64,000 bases of DNA from an uncultured Clostridia bacterium (lineage in GTDB: Bacteria > Bacillota > Clostridia > Christensenellales > UBA1242). This document shows positions 2,073-60,631 of the stretch, piece after piece. The notes below the pieces were generated by a model that worked only from the letters and a program-made list of their open reading frames with translations, had not been told where the DNA came from and did not search any database. The stretch's first letter is position 1. Each line of letters opens with the position of its first letter. Location: positions 43,490 to 107,489 of the forward strand of contig CALWEJ010000001.1 of the NCBI GenBank assembly GCA_944377165.1, read 5' to 3'. Made by a program: the position numbers and the translations under genes.

Positions 2073-3599
2073 ATGCGCTCGTTTATTAAAGAAAGATGGT
2101 TTAATTATCGTCCGTTATCTATAATTATGGTATTCCTAGCACTAGGAAGTGTTTTTGCTTTTTATATAACAAACAATGTATTCATAACAATAATATGTAC
2201 AGTAGTTATTTTATCTCTATCAATTTTTATTGCGATATTAAAGAAAAAGATAAAATACTTTTTAATTCCTTTAATTTCATTTATCATAGGTATATCCGCT
2301 TATTTTATATCTATAAAGACATTTGAAACCGCGCCATTGCAAACACCTGATATTATAGAAGCGCGCATATATAGTGTAGATCAAGCAACAGACGGAAGAA
2401 TACGCGTGTATGCAGACAGTGTTAAATTCGATGACTCTAATCAAAATGCAAATGTGACAATATACATTTATGATTACACTAATATGTTTGAAGATATAGA
2501 AATAGGGTCAGTGATTAGATTTGAACCGATTAACGTATATAAATCAGATTTATTTTACTCTGGTATCCCTAATAGTTATACTTTTACGAACAATTTGAAA
2601 TATAGTATAACTGTTAATATAAGCAATATTGAATTAGTGCGAATAGATAAAACTTTTGCCGAGAAAATACGCGAATATATAAAGGAAAATTTACATAACG
2701 GGCTTACGAACGAAAACGTTGAGATTGCATATTCTGCACTATTTGGTGACAAAGCATTGCTTAGCGACGACCAATATGATGTCTATAGGTTAAGTGGTGT
2801 AGCGCATCTTCTTGCAGTATCTGGTTTGCACGTTGGAATAATTGTAGGTATAATCTATTGGATTTTAGATAGACTCAAGGTGAAAGGTTGGAAGCGCGTA
2901 ATAATTGTTGCTTTTATTTTGCTACTATATGCTTATATATGCGGATTTACTGTTTCGGTAGTTCGCGCGATGATAATGACCTTAGTTATGCTAATCGCAC
3001 CATTAATGTTCAGGCAATATGATAGTATTTCTTCTATTTCGCTAGCAGGTATAATCGTATATTTTATTAATCCTTTATCTGTTTTTGACGTTAGTACACT
3101 AATGAGTTTTTCTTGTGTGTTTGGAATTGCTTTGTTATATAGACCTATATTTAAGGCATTATTTAAAATAAAATTACCTAATATTTTATCTAAAAGTTTA
3201 GCAATGAGTTGTTCGACAACAGTCTCTCTAATTTTCATAATGGCATATTTCTTTAAAACATTTAATTTGATATCAGTTTTAGCTAATATTATATTGATAC
3301 CGTTGTTTACAATAGGCTTTACGATTGTTTTTGTACTGTCAATAATTTCGCTAATTGTCCCATTTATCACTTATTTATTAGTTGTAGTTAATCCAATATT
3401 TGACTTTATAAATTTAGTAGCAACAATTTTAGGTAATTTATCAATATCTAATTTTGAAACTATGAATATCAATTATATATCTATTTTCATTTATTTCTTT
3501 ATAATTATGTTAATTAGTCGTATGTGTACGGCGGAGAAAGAGCATAGAGTAATGATTTCGCTTCCTTTAGTTGCTTTGTTAGTGGTAAGTTTGGTATAA
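2073..3599 (+). CDS. comEC: ComEC/Rec2 family DNA-uptake channel protein (no C-terminal metallo-beta-lactamase domain)
   Basis: Carries the LSGVAHLLAVSGLHVGIIVG competence-domain signature and is polytopic. The ORF-track TTG at 2028 lies inside an extended -10 (TGCTATAAT), so ATG 2073 is preferred. Confidence 0.8.
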   Translation: MRSFIKERWFNYRPLSIIMVFLALGSVFAFYITNNVFITIICTVVILSLSIFIAILKKKIKYFLIPLISFIIGISAYFISIKTFETAPLQTPDIIEARIYSVDQATDGRIRVYADSVKFDDSNQNANVTIYIYDYTNMFEDIEIGSVIRFEPINVYKSDLFYSGIPNSYTFTNNLKYSITVNISNIELVRIDKTFAEKIREYIKENLHNGLTNENVEIAYSALFGDKALLSDDQYDVYRLSGVAHLLAVSGLHVGIIVGIIYWILDRLKVKGWKRVIIVAFILLLYAYICGFTVSVVRAMIMTLVMLIAPLMFRQYDSISSISLAGIIVYFINPLSVFDVSTLMSFSCVFGIALLYRPIFKALFKIKLPNILSKSLAMSCSTTVSLIFIMAYFFKTFNLISVLANIILIPLFTIGFTIVFVLSIISLIVPFITYLLVVVNPIFDFINLVATILGNLSISNFETMNINYISIFIYFFIIMLISRMCTAEKEHRVMISLPLVALLVVSLV

Positions 3600-3606
3600 T
3601 ATATAT

Positions 3607-4521
3607 ATGAAATTTATGGAATTGAACAAATCTTTAAAATCTGAAATTAAACCCTCATATAATTTAAAGGGGGAAGACCTCTTTCTTATTCAAACAGCAA
3701 TAAAAAATTTAAAATCAACCTTAGTGACCGATTTAGAAGAATTCAATTATATTAAATTGAATGGTGAAAAATTAAAGAGTGATGAATTATTATCGCAAAT
3801 AGCGACTTTACCTATAAACAGTGAACACAGAATGATTGTCGTAGATTGCCCTAGTAATGAAATTATAAAATTTTTAAATAAATATGAGTTTATCGACAAT
3901 TCATCAGTTGTAGTTTGTATTAATGCTGATAAACTTGAAAATGCTGAGAATGTCGATTGCTCGCATATCGAACGTGGAGATATTTCGAAATATGTGTTAA
4001 ATTATTTAAAAAAATACAATATTTCTATTCAAGAACAAGCGCTAGATTATATAATAGACGCAACAGGTGGAGATATGTCTAAAATTCATAATGAATTAGA
4101 AAAGTTATCTTCATATGCCTGCGATTCAAATATAATAGATTTAGATATGGCTACTAATTTAGTCGCTAATTCTACAGAGTATGCCATATTTATGCTGACT
4201 AGCGCTATTGATGAAAAGAATTTGACAAAATTTCAAACAATTTTATCAAGTATGTCTAAGTCAATAAGCCTACCAGATATATTCTCATATATGGGAAAAT
4301 ATTTTAGACGTATGCAATATATCGCTATGTCTAAGAATGACGAAGAATTAGCAAAAATTTTAAATATTAAACCATATGCGATTAAAATTTCGCGCGATTA
4401 TATTCGAAAAAATGGTATAAATTACTATATTAACCTTTATAAAAAATATATAGATTTAGACCAAGATATTAAATCAGGCAAAATAACCTCAACAAATGCT
4501 ATGTACAAGCTGGTGTTTTAA
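3607..4521 (+). CDS. holA: DNA polymerase III delta subunit
   Basis: Size, N-terminal pattern (YNLKGEDLFLI) and the conserved comEC-holA synteny. Confidence 0.75.
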   Translation: MKFMELNKSLKSEIKPSYNLKGEDLFLIQTAIKNLKSTLVTDLEEFNYIKLNGEKLKSDELLSQIATLPINSEHRMIVVDCPSNEIIKFLNKYEFIDNSSVVVCINADKLENAENVDCSHIERGDISKYVLNYLKKYNISIQEQALDYIIDATGGDMSKIHNELEKLSSYACDSNIIDLDMATNLVANSTEYAIFMLTSAIDEKNLTKFQTILSSMSKSISLPDIFSYMGKYFRRMQYIAMSKNDEELAKILNIKPYAIKISRDYIRKNGINYYINLYKKYIDLDQDIKSGKITSTNAMYKLVF

Positions 4522-18334: not shown

Positions 18335-18631
18335 GAAAGTATTTAATTAGATGCTTTTTTTATGCAAGTAATATGCTTTTTTGTTAGTACATATTTAGTA
18401 CATTCATAACTTCAAAAACTTTTATTTTAAAATATACATTCAAGATTTGTATAATAACAATAAAAGGTATTTAATAAACCTTTACAGATTAACAGATGAG
18501 ATTAGAAAAATGCAAAATTCATCACAATATTACTATGCTAAAAACTAATATAAACTAATAAATATAGGGTAGAGATAACAAAAAATAACCAATATAATGA
18601 AATTTAAGCAAAGAATATCTTATAATAGCCT

Positions 18632-18815
18632 TGTGGAAAAATATAGAGTGGGGCAAAAATCTATACATATATCTTTGCGCAAAACTCTTCTTTTGCGCAA
18701 AGATATTATCATTTTGAGCTAAAATCCTGTGGAAATGCCATTTTTTATCCACAAATATCAAATTATTATTTTTCTTCTGACATTATTCGGCAATATTTAT
18801 ATCTAATTGTCCACA
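18632..18815. promoter_or_regulatory. cluster of four DnaA-box-like 9-mers
   Basis: TGTGGAAAA 18632-18640 (1 mismatch, reverse). TGTGGAAAT 18728-18736 (2 mismatches, reverse). TTATCCACA 18745-18753 (perfect). TTGTCCACA 18807-18815 (1 mismatch). Confidence 0.45.
18669..18706. repeat. perfect palindrome: 16-nt inverted arms around a 6-nt spacer
   Basis: ATATCTTTGCGCAAAA-CTCTTC-TTTTGCGCAAAGATAT, read directly from the sequence. Confidence 0.95.
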
Positions 18816-19126
18816 TATTAATTTTAATGAATTTTTGCTAAATATCTTTATATAACACCTTAGATTATTTTTATAATATTACTGTCAATGAAATCTGCTA
18901 TTTGATATTTTTTTTAATAATCCTTCATCTAAATTAATTCCAATTCGTCTGAGCGCAGATTAGACGAACTACTTAATTTACTAATAGTTGTTTTGCTACC
19001 GTTTCAGTTAAAATAAAATCGAATAATTCAATTTGTTAATTGAATAACTATATTCTTAATTATATTATGACAGTATCACACTCACTTAGTTATCTGAATA
19101 TGTCAAATTATATGTTATAAGATTAT

Positions 19127-19155
19127 ATTTTATCAAATTTGTATCTTTGCGTAAA
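19127..19155 (-). promoter_or_regulatory. orphan promoter-like element pointing into the ORF-free spacer
   Basis: On the minus strand: TTTACG-17-TAAAAT with a TGA extended -10. The -35 lies inside the arm-motif copy. Confidence 0.35.
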
Positions 19156-19157
19156 AA
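19143..19157 (+). repeat. single copy of the palindrome arm (ATCTTTGCGTAAAAA)
   Basis: Matches the 18671-18684 arm 13 of 14, and the reverse complement of 20692-20706 15 of 15. Confidence 0.85.
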
Positions 19158-19223
19158 CATAAATTAACAGAATTAAAACTAATCTATAATTGATTTATCT
19201 TTTTATATTATTATCTTGCCAAT

Positions 19224-19257
19224 AAAAAATCATAAGCTATAAAACTTATGGTTTTTT
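19224..19257 (-). terminator. serS intrinsic terminator (bidirectional shape)
   Basis: CATAAG-8 nt-CTTATG stem flanked by A- and T-runs. Confidence 0.55.
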
Positions 19258-19289
19258 ATAAATTTATTAAAATTTATACTAATTATAAA

Positions 19290-20576
19290 TTACTTTTTAG
19301 GCTTTATTACCTTAGTTCCGCCCATATATGGCCATAAAACTTCTGGTATAGTCACACTCCCATCTGCTTGCAAATGATTTTCTACAAAGGCAATTAACAT
19401 TCTAGGCGGTGCTACAACCGTATTATTTAATGTATGCGCAAATACATTACCTTTATCTGTTTTATATCTTATACCTAATCTTCTAGCTTGAGCATCTGTT
19501 AGGTTGCTACACGAACCAACTTCAAAATATTTCTTTTGTCTAGGGCTCCACGCCTCTACATCTAAGCTCCTATATTTTAAATCTGCTAAATCACCAGAAC
19601 AACATATTAAAGTTCTCACGGGAATTTCCATTGATACGAATAATTCTACAGTGTAATTCCACATTTTTTCGTACCAACTATCACTTTCTTCAGGATTGCA
19701 AATTACAATCATTTCTTGCTTTTCGAATTGATGGATTCTGTATATGCCACGTTCTTCTATTCCGTGCGCTCCCTTCTCTTTTCTAAAACAAGGACTATAC
19801 GAAGTCAAAGTAATCGGCAATTTATCTTCAGGGATAATTGTATCCATAAAGCGACCTATCATACTATGCTCACTTGTACCGATGAGATAAAGGTCTTCAC
19901 CTTCTATTTTATACATCATATTGCCCATTTCTTCAAAGCTCATAACACCTTCAACGACACTTCCGTGAATCATAAATGGCGGTATAACATATGTGAATCC
20001 TTTATTAATCATAAAGTCACGTGCGTAAGCTAAAACTGCACTGTGCAAGCGGGCAATGTCTCCTGTTAAATAATAGAAACCTTGACCAGAAGTACGTCTA
20101 GCACTATCGACATCTATACCATCGAGTTTTTCTAAAATCTCAGTATGATAAGGCACTTCAAATTCAGGGACTTTAGGCTCTAAAAACGTTTGTGCTTGAA
20201 TATTAAATTTGTCGTCTGGTCCAATCGGCACATCGTCTGCAATAATATTTGGAATGCTCATCATATCGCGTTTGATGTTTGCGTCAAGTTCGCTAACCTC
20301 TTTTTCAATACTTGAAATACGCTCATTATTAGCGACAACTTCTGCCTTTATTTTATTCGCCTCATCTACGCGCTTTTGTTTCATTAGCATACCGATTTCA
20401 GTAGAAAGAGTATTTCTTTTTGCTCTTAAATCATCTCCTTCCTTTTTGAGTGCACGAACCTTTACGTCCATTTCTATAACGTCGTCAACTAAGTGAAGTT
20501 TATGGTCTTGAAACTTCTTTTTAATATTCTCTTTTACTTTATCAGGATTATTTCTTAAAAAATTAATGTCTATCAT
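19290..20576 (-). CDS. serS: serine--tRNA ligase
   Basis: Coiled-coil N-terminal arm and class II motifs (..FRKEKGAHG.. , ..LNNTVVAPPR..). Confidence 0.95.
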   Translation of the reverse strand: MIDINFLRNNPDKVKENIKKKFQDHKLHLVDDVIEMDVKVRALKKEGDDLRAKRNTLSTEIGMLMKQKRVDEANKIKAEVVANNERISSIEKEVSELDANIKRDMMSIPNIIADDVPIGPDDKFNIQAQTFLEPKVPEFEVPYHTEILEKLDGIDVDSARRTSGQGFYYLTGDIARLHSAVLAYARDFMINKGFTYVIPPFMIHGSVVEGVMSFEEMGNMMYKIEGEDLYLIGTSEHSMIGRFMDTIIPEDKLPITLTSYSPCFRKEKGAHGIEERGIYRIHQFEKQEMIVICNPEESDSWYEKMWNYTVELFVSMEIPVRTLICCSGDLADLKYRSLDVEAWSPRQKKYFEVGSCSNLTDAQARRLGIRYKTDKGNVFAHTLNNTVVAPPRMLIAFVENHLQADGSVTIPEVLWPYMGGTKVIKPKK

Positions 20577-20602
20577 AAATACCTCTATTTAATATGCTTA
20601 AT

Positions 20603-20631
20603 ATTATATCAAATTAAAATAAATTTTGCAA
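20603..20631 (-). promoter_or_regulatory. sigma-A promoter of serS
   Basis: On the minus strand: TTGCAA-17-TATAAT with a TGA extended -10. A short leader carries an AGAGG SD, leaving no room for a T-box. Confidence 0.6.
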
Positions 20632-20687
20632 CAAAATAAAATTTCATATCAAAAATTTATTATTTATTATAATTGAATTAAATTTGC

Positions 20688-20716
20688 TTGTTTTTTACGC
20701 AAAGATTTGATAATAT
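20688..20716 (+). promoter_or_regulatory. promoter of the Xer-like recombinase (leaderless geometry)
   Basis: TTGTTT-17-TAATAT, ending 6 nt before ATG 20723. No SD. The spacer is filled by the arm motif. Confidence 0.45.
20692..20706 (-). repeat. single copy of the palindrome arm (inverted relative to 19143-19157)
   Basis: TTTTTACGCAAAGAT is the reverse complement of ATCTTTGCGTAAAAA. Confidence 0.85.
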
Positions 20717-20722
20717 ATTAAT

Positions 20723-21775
20723 ATGTCAACAAATTATTATTTAGATAGAAATAGAAATAATATGAGAAAATTAAATGAAATGCTAACTGATTTACCTGCA
20801 TTTTGTTCAATATTTTTCATAGGAATACAAGATACAACTACTCCACTCACACGACTTAATTATGCAGTAGATATAAAGACCTTCTTCACATATTTAACTA
20901 CATATGAACAAAAATTTGTCAATCGTGATATAAAATCTATTACACTTGCTGATATAGATGGAATTGATGCTCAATGTATTGAACGATATATGGCATCTCT
21001 ATCCTACTATGACAAAGATGATGGAAAAATATTAACAAATGGCGAACGTGGTAAACTTAGAAAGCTATCTTCTCTAAGGGCGTTTTTCAAATACTTTTTC
21101 AATAAAGATATGTTAAAAGCTAACGTTGCAAGCAAGGTAGCTAGCCCTAAATTACACGAAAAACCAATTATTAGACTTGAAGCACAAGAAACCGCTGAAT
21201 TAATGTATTCGTGTGATACATTATCCGGATTTAGTGAGCATCAAAAAAAATATAACGAAAAATTTAAAATTCGCGATAATGCTATATTATCCCTATTTTT
21301 GACCACAGGAATTCGTGTAAGTGAATGCGTTGGATTAAATGTTGATGATATAAACTTTAATCTTAATTCATTTCGAGTGACACGAAAAGGTGGCAATCAA
21401 GTTATATTATATTTTGGAGAAGAAACCGCTGATGCTCTAAAAAAATATCTCTCATATAGAGAAACATTAAATCTACCAAAAGAAGAAAAAGCGCTATTTA
21501 TTTCAAGTCAAGGTAAGCGAATGATGGTTAGAGCAATGGAATATCTAGTAAAAAAATATGCTAAAATTGCTACTCCACTTAAACATATTACTCCGCATAA
21601 ATTACGTTCAACTTATGGCACTAACTTATACAATGAAACAAAGGATATTTATATAGTTGCTGAAGTTTTAGGTCATAAAGATGTAAATACTACTAAAAAA
21701 CACTACGCAGCAATAAGCGATGACGTTAGACGTTCCGTAGCAGGCAAAGTTAAATTAAATAATGACAATATGTAG
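20723..21775 (+). CDS. tyrosine site-specific recombinase, Xer-like (350 aa)
   Basis: Catalytic signature: TGIRVSE (Arg), VTRKGG (beta-hairpin Lys), HKLRSTY (HxxR), LGHKDVNTTKKHY (His..Tyr). No phage genes flank it. Confidence 0.8.
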   Translation: MSTNYYLDRNRNNMRKLNEMLTDLPAFCSIFFIGIQDTTTPLTRLNYAVDIKTFFTYLTTYEQKFVNRDIKSITLADIDGIDAQCIERYMASLSYYDKDDGKILTNGERGKLRKLSSLRAFFKYFFNKDMLKANVASKVASPKLHEKPIIRLEAQETAELMYSCDTLSGFSEHQKKYNEKFKIRDNAILSLFLTTGIRVSECVGLNVDDINFNLNSFRVTRKGGNQVILYFGEETADALKKYLSYRETLNLPKEEKALFISSQGKRMMVRAMEYLVKKYAKIATPLKHITPHKLRSTYGTNLYNETKDIYIVAEVLGHKDVNTTKKHYAAISDDVRRSVAGKVKLNNDNM

Positions 21776-59590: not shown

Positions 59591-60631
59591 TTACATTATA
59601 AACATACTATCGCCGAAACTAAAAAATCTATACTGATTTTCAACTGCTGTTTCATATAGTTTCATAGTATTATCATAACCAGCAAATGCACAAACTAGCA
59701 TAATTAATGTACTCTTAGGTAAATGGAAATTAGTAATTAGTGCATCTACTACTTTAAATTTATACGGCGGATATATGAATATATTTGTATCTCCTTCCAT
59801 AGCCTGCAAAGGTACACCATATTGTGCAACACTTTCCAAAGTTCTAACAGTAGTCGTACCGACAGCAATAACGCGTCTATTTTCACGTTTAGCAAGGTTA
59901 ATGCGTTCTGCGACTTCTTGCGACAAAGAATAATGCTCTGTGTGCATATCGTGTTTTCGAATGTCTTTTTCTTTACAAGGTCTGAATGTTCCTAATCCTA
60001 CATCTAAGGTAAGTTCTAGTATTTCAACCCCCATATCTTGTATCTTTTGCAACAATTCACGTGTAAAGTGTAAGCCTGCGGTTGGCGCTGCTGCGCTACC
60101 TTCAACTTTGTTATAAACGGTCTGATAGCGCTCCTTATCTTTTAATTTTTCGTGAATATAATGAGGCAAAGGCATACTGCCTACTCTATTTAAAATATCT
60201 TCAAAAACACCATTAAAAATAAATCTAACTATTCTATTTCCGTCTGGCAAAATTTCTAATAACTCGCATTTTAGGTCATCGCTTATTGTTAGTATTGTCC
60301 CTATCTTTACGCGTTTTGCTGGCTTTAATAACACTTCCCAATCAGTTAAGCTCTTTCTTTTTAAAAGTAAAATTTCAACATTAGCACCTGTATCTTTACG
60401 CGCTGTTAAACGTGCCGGTAAAACGCGTGTATTATTTATTACAAGTACATCACCTTTGCGTAAAAATTGTGTTATGTCTTTAAAATGTCTATTATATATT
60501 TCGCTATTATTTCTATCAAAAACTAATAGCCTACTCTCATCGCGCTTATCAAGTGGAGTTTGCGCTATCAATTCTTGAGGAAGATAATAATCGTAAGATT
60601 CTAAGTCATTATAATTAATCGTCTTGCCCAT
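59591..60631 (-). CDS. queA: S-adenosylmethionine:tRNA ribosyltransferase-isomerase
   Basis: [14 protein letters not shown].. N-terminus and [13 protein letters not shown]. Confidence 0.95.

Follow-up and report, generated by a model that had tools for sequence, protein, structure and literature searches.

The locus described here raises a question of function and of partnership: what is a long, perfect palindrome, located in an intergenic spacer 2 kb from a gene for a tyrosine recombinase, doing in the chromosome of an uncultured Clostridia bacterium, and which protein acts on it? The stretch of DNA analyzed (positions 1-64000, 64 kb, referred to below as the window) has a GC content of about 30%. 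The genes around the palindrome are miaB, mutS, mutL, miaA, a Met-gamma-lyase-like gene (MGL), the spacer, serS on the minus strand, the recombinase gene on the plus strand, and lexA. After lexA come a PadR-like gene and two ABC-transporter genes, followed by rnhA, tRNA-Trp, rny, and thiI, all on the minus strand. An initial annotation had interpreted the palindrome as a dif-like core site of a tyrosine recombinase, and its position in the skew, its uniqueness, its conservation, and the hybrid attL and attR junctions of prophages support that interpretation. On comparative sequence grounds, we consider it very probable that the 38-mer serves a bacterium of the Candidatus Onthoplasma group as its chromosomal dif site and that the XerS-like recombinase encoded 2 kb away acts on it. 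The features that are central to this proposal are the following.

18669-18706, no strand: putative full dif-type core site; core pattern present, with its centre in one polarity, at 37 clade loci; point of crossover for microvirus prophages
18669-18684: left arm (conserved 14 nt, 18671-18684)
18685-18690: centre CTCTTC, asymmetric
18691-18706: right arm
20723-21775, plus strand: XerS-like tyrosine recombinase, 350 amino acids (profile match, catalytic alignment, 84-91% identity in the clade)

The 38-mer reads ATATCTTTGCGCAAAA-CTCTTC-TTTTGCGCAAAGATAT, its right part being also given as TTTTGCGCAAAGAT AT, and both the coordinates and the perfect 16-6-16 layout reported initially are exact. The arms of 16 nt each are 100% complementary with 6 nt between them; the version of the core that is conserved in the clade is 14-6-14. 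Every other perfect inverted repeat with a loop of 3-10 nt in the window is shorter, and the longest arms seen in 20 Markov-1 shuffles were of 9-13 nt. Folded as single-stranded DNA, the 38-mer has a predicted energy of -15.9 kcal/mol (z = -9 vs shuffles). The full site occurs once in the window, and the 14-nt arm ATCTTTGCGYAAAA is found without mismatch at four places, 18671 (+), 18691 (-), 19143 (+), and 20693 (-). A candidate fifth copy at 60452, with one mismatch, lies within a gene and was set aside as a probable chance match. The spacer around the 38-mer measures 955 bp (18335-19289) and had been described as free of open reading frames, which is accurate but for one unconvincing frame of 68 amino acids with a TTG start; neither Rfam nor ARAGORN detected an RNA gene in it. 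The possibility that TATCTTTG is a Bacteroidota-type -7 promoter box (TAnnTTTG) was dropped on account of the Firmicute gene content.

The 350-residue protein is the only tyrosine recombinase in the 64 kb, and its residues R198, K222, H292, R295, H318, and Y328 align to the catalytic residues of XerD, so that the lone enzyme with a full R/K/HxxR/H/Y signature noted at the outset is indeed present with a complete catalytic set. Its best match in NCBIfam is XerS (NF003462, positions 4-355 of 360 aligned), at a score of 175.7 bits that is below the curated equivalog cutoff of 267. The XerC, XerA, and XerD models are close behind, those of XerC and XerD scoring 155-165 bits vs cutoffs of about 330. 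Against the same XerS model, genuine XerS controls score 357-430 bits and the recombinases of sister lineages, which are 52-57% identical to the clade Xer, score 207 bits. The identity to genuine XerS is about 30%, and the insertion specific to XerS is missing (alignment gaps). A weaker similarity to the XerH chain 5jjv (E = 2.6e-9) is limited to the C-terminal part. Hundreds of metagenomic homologs are 84-91% identical to the recombinase, their hosts being uncultured gut Clostridia of Candidatus Onthoplasma, order Christensenellales, and the wider family of proteins of about 350 residues comprises 733 representative clusters at E<1e-30. This combination of high identity across a clade with a broad family is the behaviour of a housekeeping gene and not of a mobile-element integrase.

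The distribution of the site was established by scanning the core pattern TTTGCGYAAAA-N6-TTTTRCGCAAA against 185,579 species genomes, which returned 51 loci. Thirty-seven of these belong to an Onthoplasma-like clade of about 36 species and share the order miaA, MGL-like gene, site, serS, xer, lexA. Three are from sister lineages (L008, L043, and L047), with the site 140-220 bp upstream of xer and no intervening serS; in L008 and L043 it is positioned between divergent xer and lexA. Two are found beside genuine XerS genes (430 and 357 bits), on the Peribacillus plasmid pRS7a, where the core is about 25 bp before the xerS start codon, and on a Levilactobacillus contig (L019, full site at 3391-3418). 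Four are in MAGs labelled Halanaerobiaceae (L012 at 6617, L016 at 7, L032 at 4732, and L046 at 193); their centres are TTTGTA or TTTGCA, they are located about 200 bp upstream of lexA, and no xer was found near them within the fetched 8 kb. The linkage of site and lexA may be old. The remaining 5 are scattered and probably due to chance.

Among 36 clade assemblies, all of them incomplete MAGs, each has one full site with the single exception of one bin. That assembly, CANQZB01 (Lapin-014 bin9), has two complete site-serS-xer loci on separate contigs (L024 and L039); as these are two whole loci, 82-86% identical to the query, the bin is most likely a mixture of two related strains. The uniqueness expected of a dif-type site therefore holds: of the 51 loci found in the scan of 185,579 species genomes, 37 come from a single clade, where every bin but this mixed one has just one. 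The pairing of site with recombinase, which had been proposed as a check in related genomes, is likewise conserved: the two occur together in about 36 species and are directly adjacent in the sister lineages.

On the Levilactobacillus contig, a second quasi-palindrome, CTTTGCGTAAAA-AAG-TTTTACTACGCAAA, was observed at 3833-3866, about 50 bp upstream of the genuine xerS, and it may be an operator. XerS-annotated genes are present on 925 sequenced Firmicute plasmids, mainly of Bacillus and Enterococcus. Of four plasmid xerS genes inspected (L227, L228, L229, and L049), three have a difSL-like site just upstream, and plasmid xerS genes other than that of pRS7a carry less symmetric versions of the core, e.g., TTTCGTAAAA-ATTGTA-TTTTACGCATAA. 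This suggests that XerS modules on plasmids serve in plasmid multimer resolution. The recurrence of the core arms at XerS loci and in difSL marks this type of arm as a trait of the XerS family and ties the site to the enzyme that adjoins it.

The position of the site on the chromosome was assessed from nucleotide skew in local windows (64 kb and 21 kb). The cumulative G-C maximum of the whole 64 kb window is at 18653, and the site is 16 bp away. In 21-kb loci from three lineages (L001, L003, L005, L006, and L007), the local skew peak is 18-290 bp from the site, and the skew is positive to the left of it and negative to the right. A maximum at the site both in the window and in other lineages indicates that the site marks the switch between replichores. 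The proposal that it be located at a skew extremum was thus borne out (18653 for the maximum, 18669 for the site; likewise in three other lineages), and the site turns out to be closer to the switch than the earlier argument from gene polarity implied, since it coincides with the extremum itself. The flip in gene polarity appears later, at 26.8 kb, because the xer-lexA-ABC block is oriented the opposite way. Several purine-rich k-mers aim at the site from both sides in positions 1-64000 (GAGTGG 11:0, GAAGAAG 15:2, and TTGAAGA 31:3), and GAAGAAG is the reported FtsK-orienting motif of L. lactis. These k-mers were not retained as KOPS-like polar words, as such a bias is confounded with gene orientation in a sample of 64 kb.

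The two parts of the site evolve in different ways. A few types of centre are found, GCCTTC, CTCTTC, CACTTC, CCCTTC, and CAACAC, and when mapped on the MGL protein tree the centre has changed at least 17 times with its polarity always kept; in all 44 sites that could be oriented by flanking genes the polarity is identical. Since the arms are identical, the centre alone provides a polarity, one that is fixed relative to the replichores. A pair of empty sites from conspecific strains (L005 7669-7696 and L030 1403-1430) has flanks that are about 97% identical and centres CACTTC vs CAACAC, the difference being confined to three consecutive centre positions. The arms are invariant save for a single position, which is C or T in the left arm and G or A in the right arm. 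It has switched at least 7 times and is symmetric in 34 of 36 sites; one of the two asymmetric exceptions is a documented hybrid of phage and host. Such symmetry could be upheld by one protein that reads both arms, or else by quasi-palindrome template-switch correction.

The site is also a place where viruses reside. Seven insertions of integrase-less, gokushovirus-type prophages were found at it (L002, L004, L045/L141, L048, L147, L148, and L192), and two of them can be compared with empty counterparts.

L002, 2565-7970: prophage, an insert of about 5.3-5.4 kb in the spacer
L004, 2369-7690: prophage, about 5.3 kb

Contigs with an identical recombinase exist in two states, empty in L001 (equivalent to the window) and occupied in L002, and a second species provides a similar pair, L005 (empty) and L004 (occupied). 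The L002 prophage encodes a VP5-like protein, the VP3 scaffold, the VP1 capsid, the VP2 pilot, and the VP4 Rep proteins together with an Xre-type repressor; overall, the prophages are complete, with VP1-VP5 plus an Xre or RHH repressor, and an integrase gene was found in none of them. At the attL junction, the left flank and left arm of the host are followed by a weaker right arm of the phage (CTTTACGCAAAAAT or TTTTGCGAGTAAAT) and phage DNA. The attR junction consists of phage DNA, then left arm, centre, host right arm, and host flank, whereby an intact dif is regenerated. In the pair L004/L005 a marker in the left arm is the host T in attL and the phage C in attR, and in the pair L001/L002 the centre is of the phage type, CCCTTC, in attL and of the host type, CTCTTC, in attR. 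Taken together, the two markers place the crossover at the border of left arm and centre. In the five further insertions (L045/L141, L048, L147, L148, and L192) the Rep gene always adjoins the full site, even in L192, a distant lineage in which the site has diverged to TATTCGCAAAA-GCATAG-TTTTGCGAATA.

These sequence comparisons show that integrase-less microviruses of gokushovirus type bring along an imitation of the site, through which they recombine with its counterpart in related hosts. The nearest deposited genomes have 62-64% VP1 identity to these prophages. The attP motif was absent from 80 IMG/VR relatives (50-71% VP1 identity) save for one prophage fragment, and when viral contigs (two pattern scans) and metagenomes (one scan) were searched for a free phage with the reconstructed attP, only further integrated copies came up. 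The layout matches the class of integrative mobile elements exploiting Xer (IMEX). Integration of integrase-less gokushoviruses at the dif site of E. coli through XerC and XerD was shown experimentally (PMC7062461), and XerL/dif of Legionella was found by way of a mobile element that mimics dif (LME-1; PMC9765430). As in these cases, there is no integrase, one dif is intact, and the other site is a hybrid in which the phage-derived arm and centre are the more degenerate; the enterobacterial elements moreover belong to the same virus group, gokushovirus-type Microviridae. Unlike the known IMEX, the present elements reside in uncultured Clostridia, their presumed enzyme is a single XerS-like protein and not XerC plus XerD, they have Xre or RHH repressor genes, and some attP copy about 45 bp of host flank. 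Microvirus prophages listed as of 2022 were from Bacteroidales, Hyphomicrobiales, and Enterobacteriaceae only (PMC9753089).

Conserved elements extend beyond the core site on both sides and into the intergenic region upstream of xer.

18632-18668, plus strand: conserved left flank with TGTGGA box, G-rich aGgG.aGtG patch, and Aa..tT.tAt (anchored conservation profile, 34 species)
18721-18753, plus strand: conserved right flank, an inverted repeat AAAT..TGTGGAAAT..TTT.TCCACA (conservation profile)
19143-19157, plus strand: half-site ATCTTTGCGTAAAAA in left-arm orientation, T variant, no partner arm, between the full site and the 3' end of serS
19290-20576, minus strand: serS, bracketed by two facing half-sites; missing here in sister lineage L047
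20688-20716, plus strand: predicted xer promoter, TTGTTT-17 nt-TAATAT, TG-extended, its spacer filled by a half-site
20691-20706, minus strand: half-site oriented like the right arm, between serS and xer; probable operator of Xer

The TGTGGA box and the G-rich patch are 20-45 bp to the left of the site, and the TGTGGAAAT...TCCACA inverted repeat is 35-65 bp to the right. The attP of both L002 and L147 reproduces the left flank of the host, over about 45 bp, which suggests that this flank contributes to recombination. Both blocks could be accessory or FtsK-related elements.

Single arm copies had been noted at 19143 and at about 20692; exact copies are present at 19143 (+) and 20693 (-), and both are conserved half-sites. 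In essentially all species they form a 17-nt block, atATCTTTGCGTAAAAAaC, which is the T variant throughout and lacks a partner arm. The half-site at the 3' end of serS is sharply bounded as a 17-nt block in 37 oriented loci and abuts the serS terminator hairpin in about one-third of the species, and that of the serS-xer intergenic region is present in 18 of 18 loci that reach xer. The two face each other across serS. An interpretation of the half-sites as simple IMEX scars was rejected on two grounds: they point the opposite way from attL in the observed insertions, and they have in common an extended consensus, ATCTTTGCGTAAAAAAC, that is particular to them. In L047 the order is miaA, MGL, site, xer, with neither serS nor half-sites; relative to that arrangement the serS segment is an insertion, apparently one that entered an ancestral dif-xer module. 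In many Firmicutes serS has a T-box leader; here the serS leader (20577-20722, 146 bp) contains no T-box riboswitch at the Rfam gathering threshold.

In this species, 7 nt separate the end of the predicted -10 element of xer (extended, TGATAATAT) from the ATG, and a Shine-Dalgarno sequence is missing; a leaderless xer mRNA is therefore probable. Across species, a TAnAAT box follows the half-site after 4 nt, and TTG(T/G)TT is found 17 nt upstream of that box. From this conserved spacing, the half-site occupies the spacer of a predicted sigma-A-type promoter; the arm copy reported within the promoter of the recombinase is thus corroborated by a -10 box conserved across species. Most likely, the half-site in the promoter lets Xer repress its own gene. 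A LexA operator of the form GAAC-N4-GTTC does not occur in the window. Autorepression agrees with what was proposed for the streptococcal system, an overlap of difSL with the xerS promoter (PMC1914069).

Could the palindrome be something other than a site for the neighbouring recombinase? It is conceivable that the site is a genuine target of recombination on which a different enzyme acts, either an unlinked XerC/XerD pair or an enzyme of a mobile element, the XerS-like gene being there by coincidence. The 64 kb inspected are a part of the genome, the site is separated from xer by 2 kb and by serS, and some MAGs have the core without an xer in the fetched stretch, all of which would fit such a view. 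However, the core is found beside XerS-family genes in at least 4 separate settings (Onthoplasma, its sister lineages, Levilactobacillus, and Bacillaceae plasmids), identical arms suit a single recombinase and not an XerC/XerD pair, the arms are unlike the dif consensus of Firmicute XerCD, and the prophages are without an integrase of their own; we therefore regard this explanation as improbable. 

The two alternatives named in the initial annotation, operator and terminator, find no support where the full site is concerned. The first would make the arm copies operators of a dimeric transcription factor that reads the 10-bp palindrome TTTGCGCAAA, with recombination not being primary. Each C-variant arm does contain TTTGCGCAAA, and copies are located between serS and xer and also, for some MAGs, upstream of lexA. 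Yet the T variant (TTTGCGTAAA), in which the inner palindrome is broken, accounts for every half-site and for about 40% of the full sites, and what is conserved is an asymmetric 15-17-mer. The prophage junctions map inside the full site, the fixed 6-nt spacing and the fast-changing centre are features of a recombinase core, and the window has no LexA box; such an operator role is very improbable. Least credible to us is that the hairpin is an intrinsic terminator, or an RNA or DNA structural element, downstream of the miaB-mutS-mutL-miaA operon. A terminator scan does flag the 38-mer, with 16 pairs and the tail TATCATTTTG, the stem is stable, and the variable arm position changes with base pairing preserved. 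Against these stand the tails of other species (GACTGAAATT, GAGGCAGAAT), in which no T-run follows the stem, a distance of 335 bp between the stop codon and the hairpin, an arm sequence that is invariant, beyond what pairing would demand, in about 40 species and at XerS loci of Bacilli, and the phages that recombine at it.

With the 38-mer taken as a dif site of the XerS-like enzyme, the relation to known systems can be considered. Several generic attributes of Xer/dif are found here: a position at the GC-skew switch in local windows, one site per assembly, inverted arms around a 6-bp centre, and a vertically inherited catalytic Xer. Among the known systems, the locus is closest to XerS/difSL of Streptococcaceae, which together with the XerS of lactobacilli and of Firmicute plasmids is characterized by a single tyrosine recombinase of about 350 residues and a site at the skew switch. 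The two halves of difSL, TTTCCGAAAA and TTTTCTTGAAA (PMC5357621), have arms of the same type, a T-run, a CG core, and an A-run; together with the genuine XerS genes of pRS7a and Levilactobacillus, which have an identical core, they substantiate the likeness to difSL that had been noted initially. xerS and difSL form a module (PMC1914069), as do site and gene in the sister lineages, and here a half-site is present at the xer promoter. The locus nevertheless lacks two defining features of that system. The recombinase fails the equivalog score (175.7 vs 267 bits), and whereas difSL is a 31-bp site with unequal and imperfect arms, the left half of which is bound more strongly by XerS, the arms here are identical, 14-16 nt long, around a 6-bp centre. 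Published figures for the difSL centre differ, being 6-8 bp in Le Bourgeois et al. (PMC1914069) and 11 bp in a 2017 review citing Leroux et al. (PMC5357621). A further difference is that the full site is 2 kb from xer with serS in between; in the sister lineages L008, L043, and L047 it adjoins xer.

XerH/difH of Helicobacter and Campylobacter resembles the present locus in its single long Xer, in having the site near the gene, and in a core of the GAAAA-N6-TTTTC type (PMC5357621), but the sequence relation is weak (C-terminal only) and the difH arms are imperfect. The similarity to Cre/loxP is one of layout only, perfectly symmetric arms with an asymmetric spacer as the only source of polarity; by description, the dimensions differ (13-8-13 vs 14/16-6-14/16), Cre is encoded by a phage, and homology is limited to the tyrosine-recombinase fold. 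In contrast to Firmicute XerCD/dif, with two recombinases of about 300 residues and a 28-bp dif with distinct arms, there is one enzyme of 350 residues and the arms are identical. These identical arms and the absence of a second recombinase in the 64 kb are consistent with a single-recombinase system.

By analogy with XerS, XerH, and Cre, one recombinase monomer would bind each of the identical 14-16-nt arms, and the two sites on a chromosome dimer would synapse as a tetramer. Tyr328 would then cleave where each arm meets the centre, and strand exchange across these 6 bp, in two ordered steps, would resolve the dimer near the terminus, probably under the control of FtsK. Integration of a microvirus at the same site leaves a hybrid attL, composed of the host left arm and the weak right arm of the phage, and regenerates dif as attR.

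A more far-reaching reading is that repeated Xer-mediated traffic shaped the locus, phage centres being transferred to the chromosome and serS being captured by IMEX-type integrations. As a joint account of both events we think it rather unlikely, and it is offered tentatively. Exchange at one border of the centre upon integration, with excision at the other, would bring the centre of a phage into the chromosome and so replace it as a block. Were this transfer real, it would explain the block replacement seen between conspecific strains, and the diversity of centres would then act as escape from phage integration. As for serS, it would have been captured beside the ancestral dif-xer module, the scars of integration being later kept as Xer operators.

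In summary, these findings would extend the single-recombinase form of Xer/dif to a large group of uncultured gut Clostridia, the Christensenellales, and would define a dif site for that group which should be useful for locating termini and for orienting MAG scaffolds. Gokushoviruses are among the most abundant viruses of the gut, and to our knowledge their hosts are almost never known; gut gokushoviruses gain here a concrete host in Christensenellales together with a route to lysogeny. It also appears that an enzyme of XerS type, and not only XerCD, can be exploited by microviruses, which adds a new host group and a new type of Xer to those in use. The symmetric arms pose the question of what sets the order of strand exchange, and the control by FtsK, when asymmetry is confined to a 6-bp centre. 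Natural handles on the conflict between phage and dif, and on the autoregulation of Xer, are provided by the rapidly swapped centre and by the half-sites kept across species.
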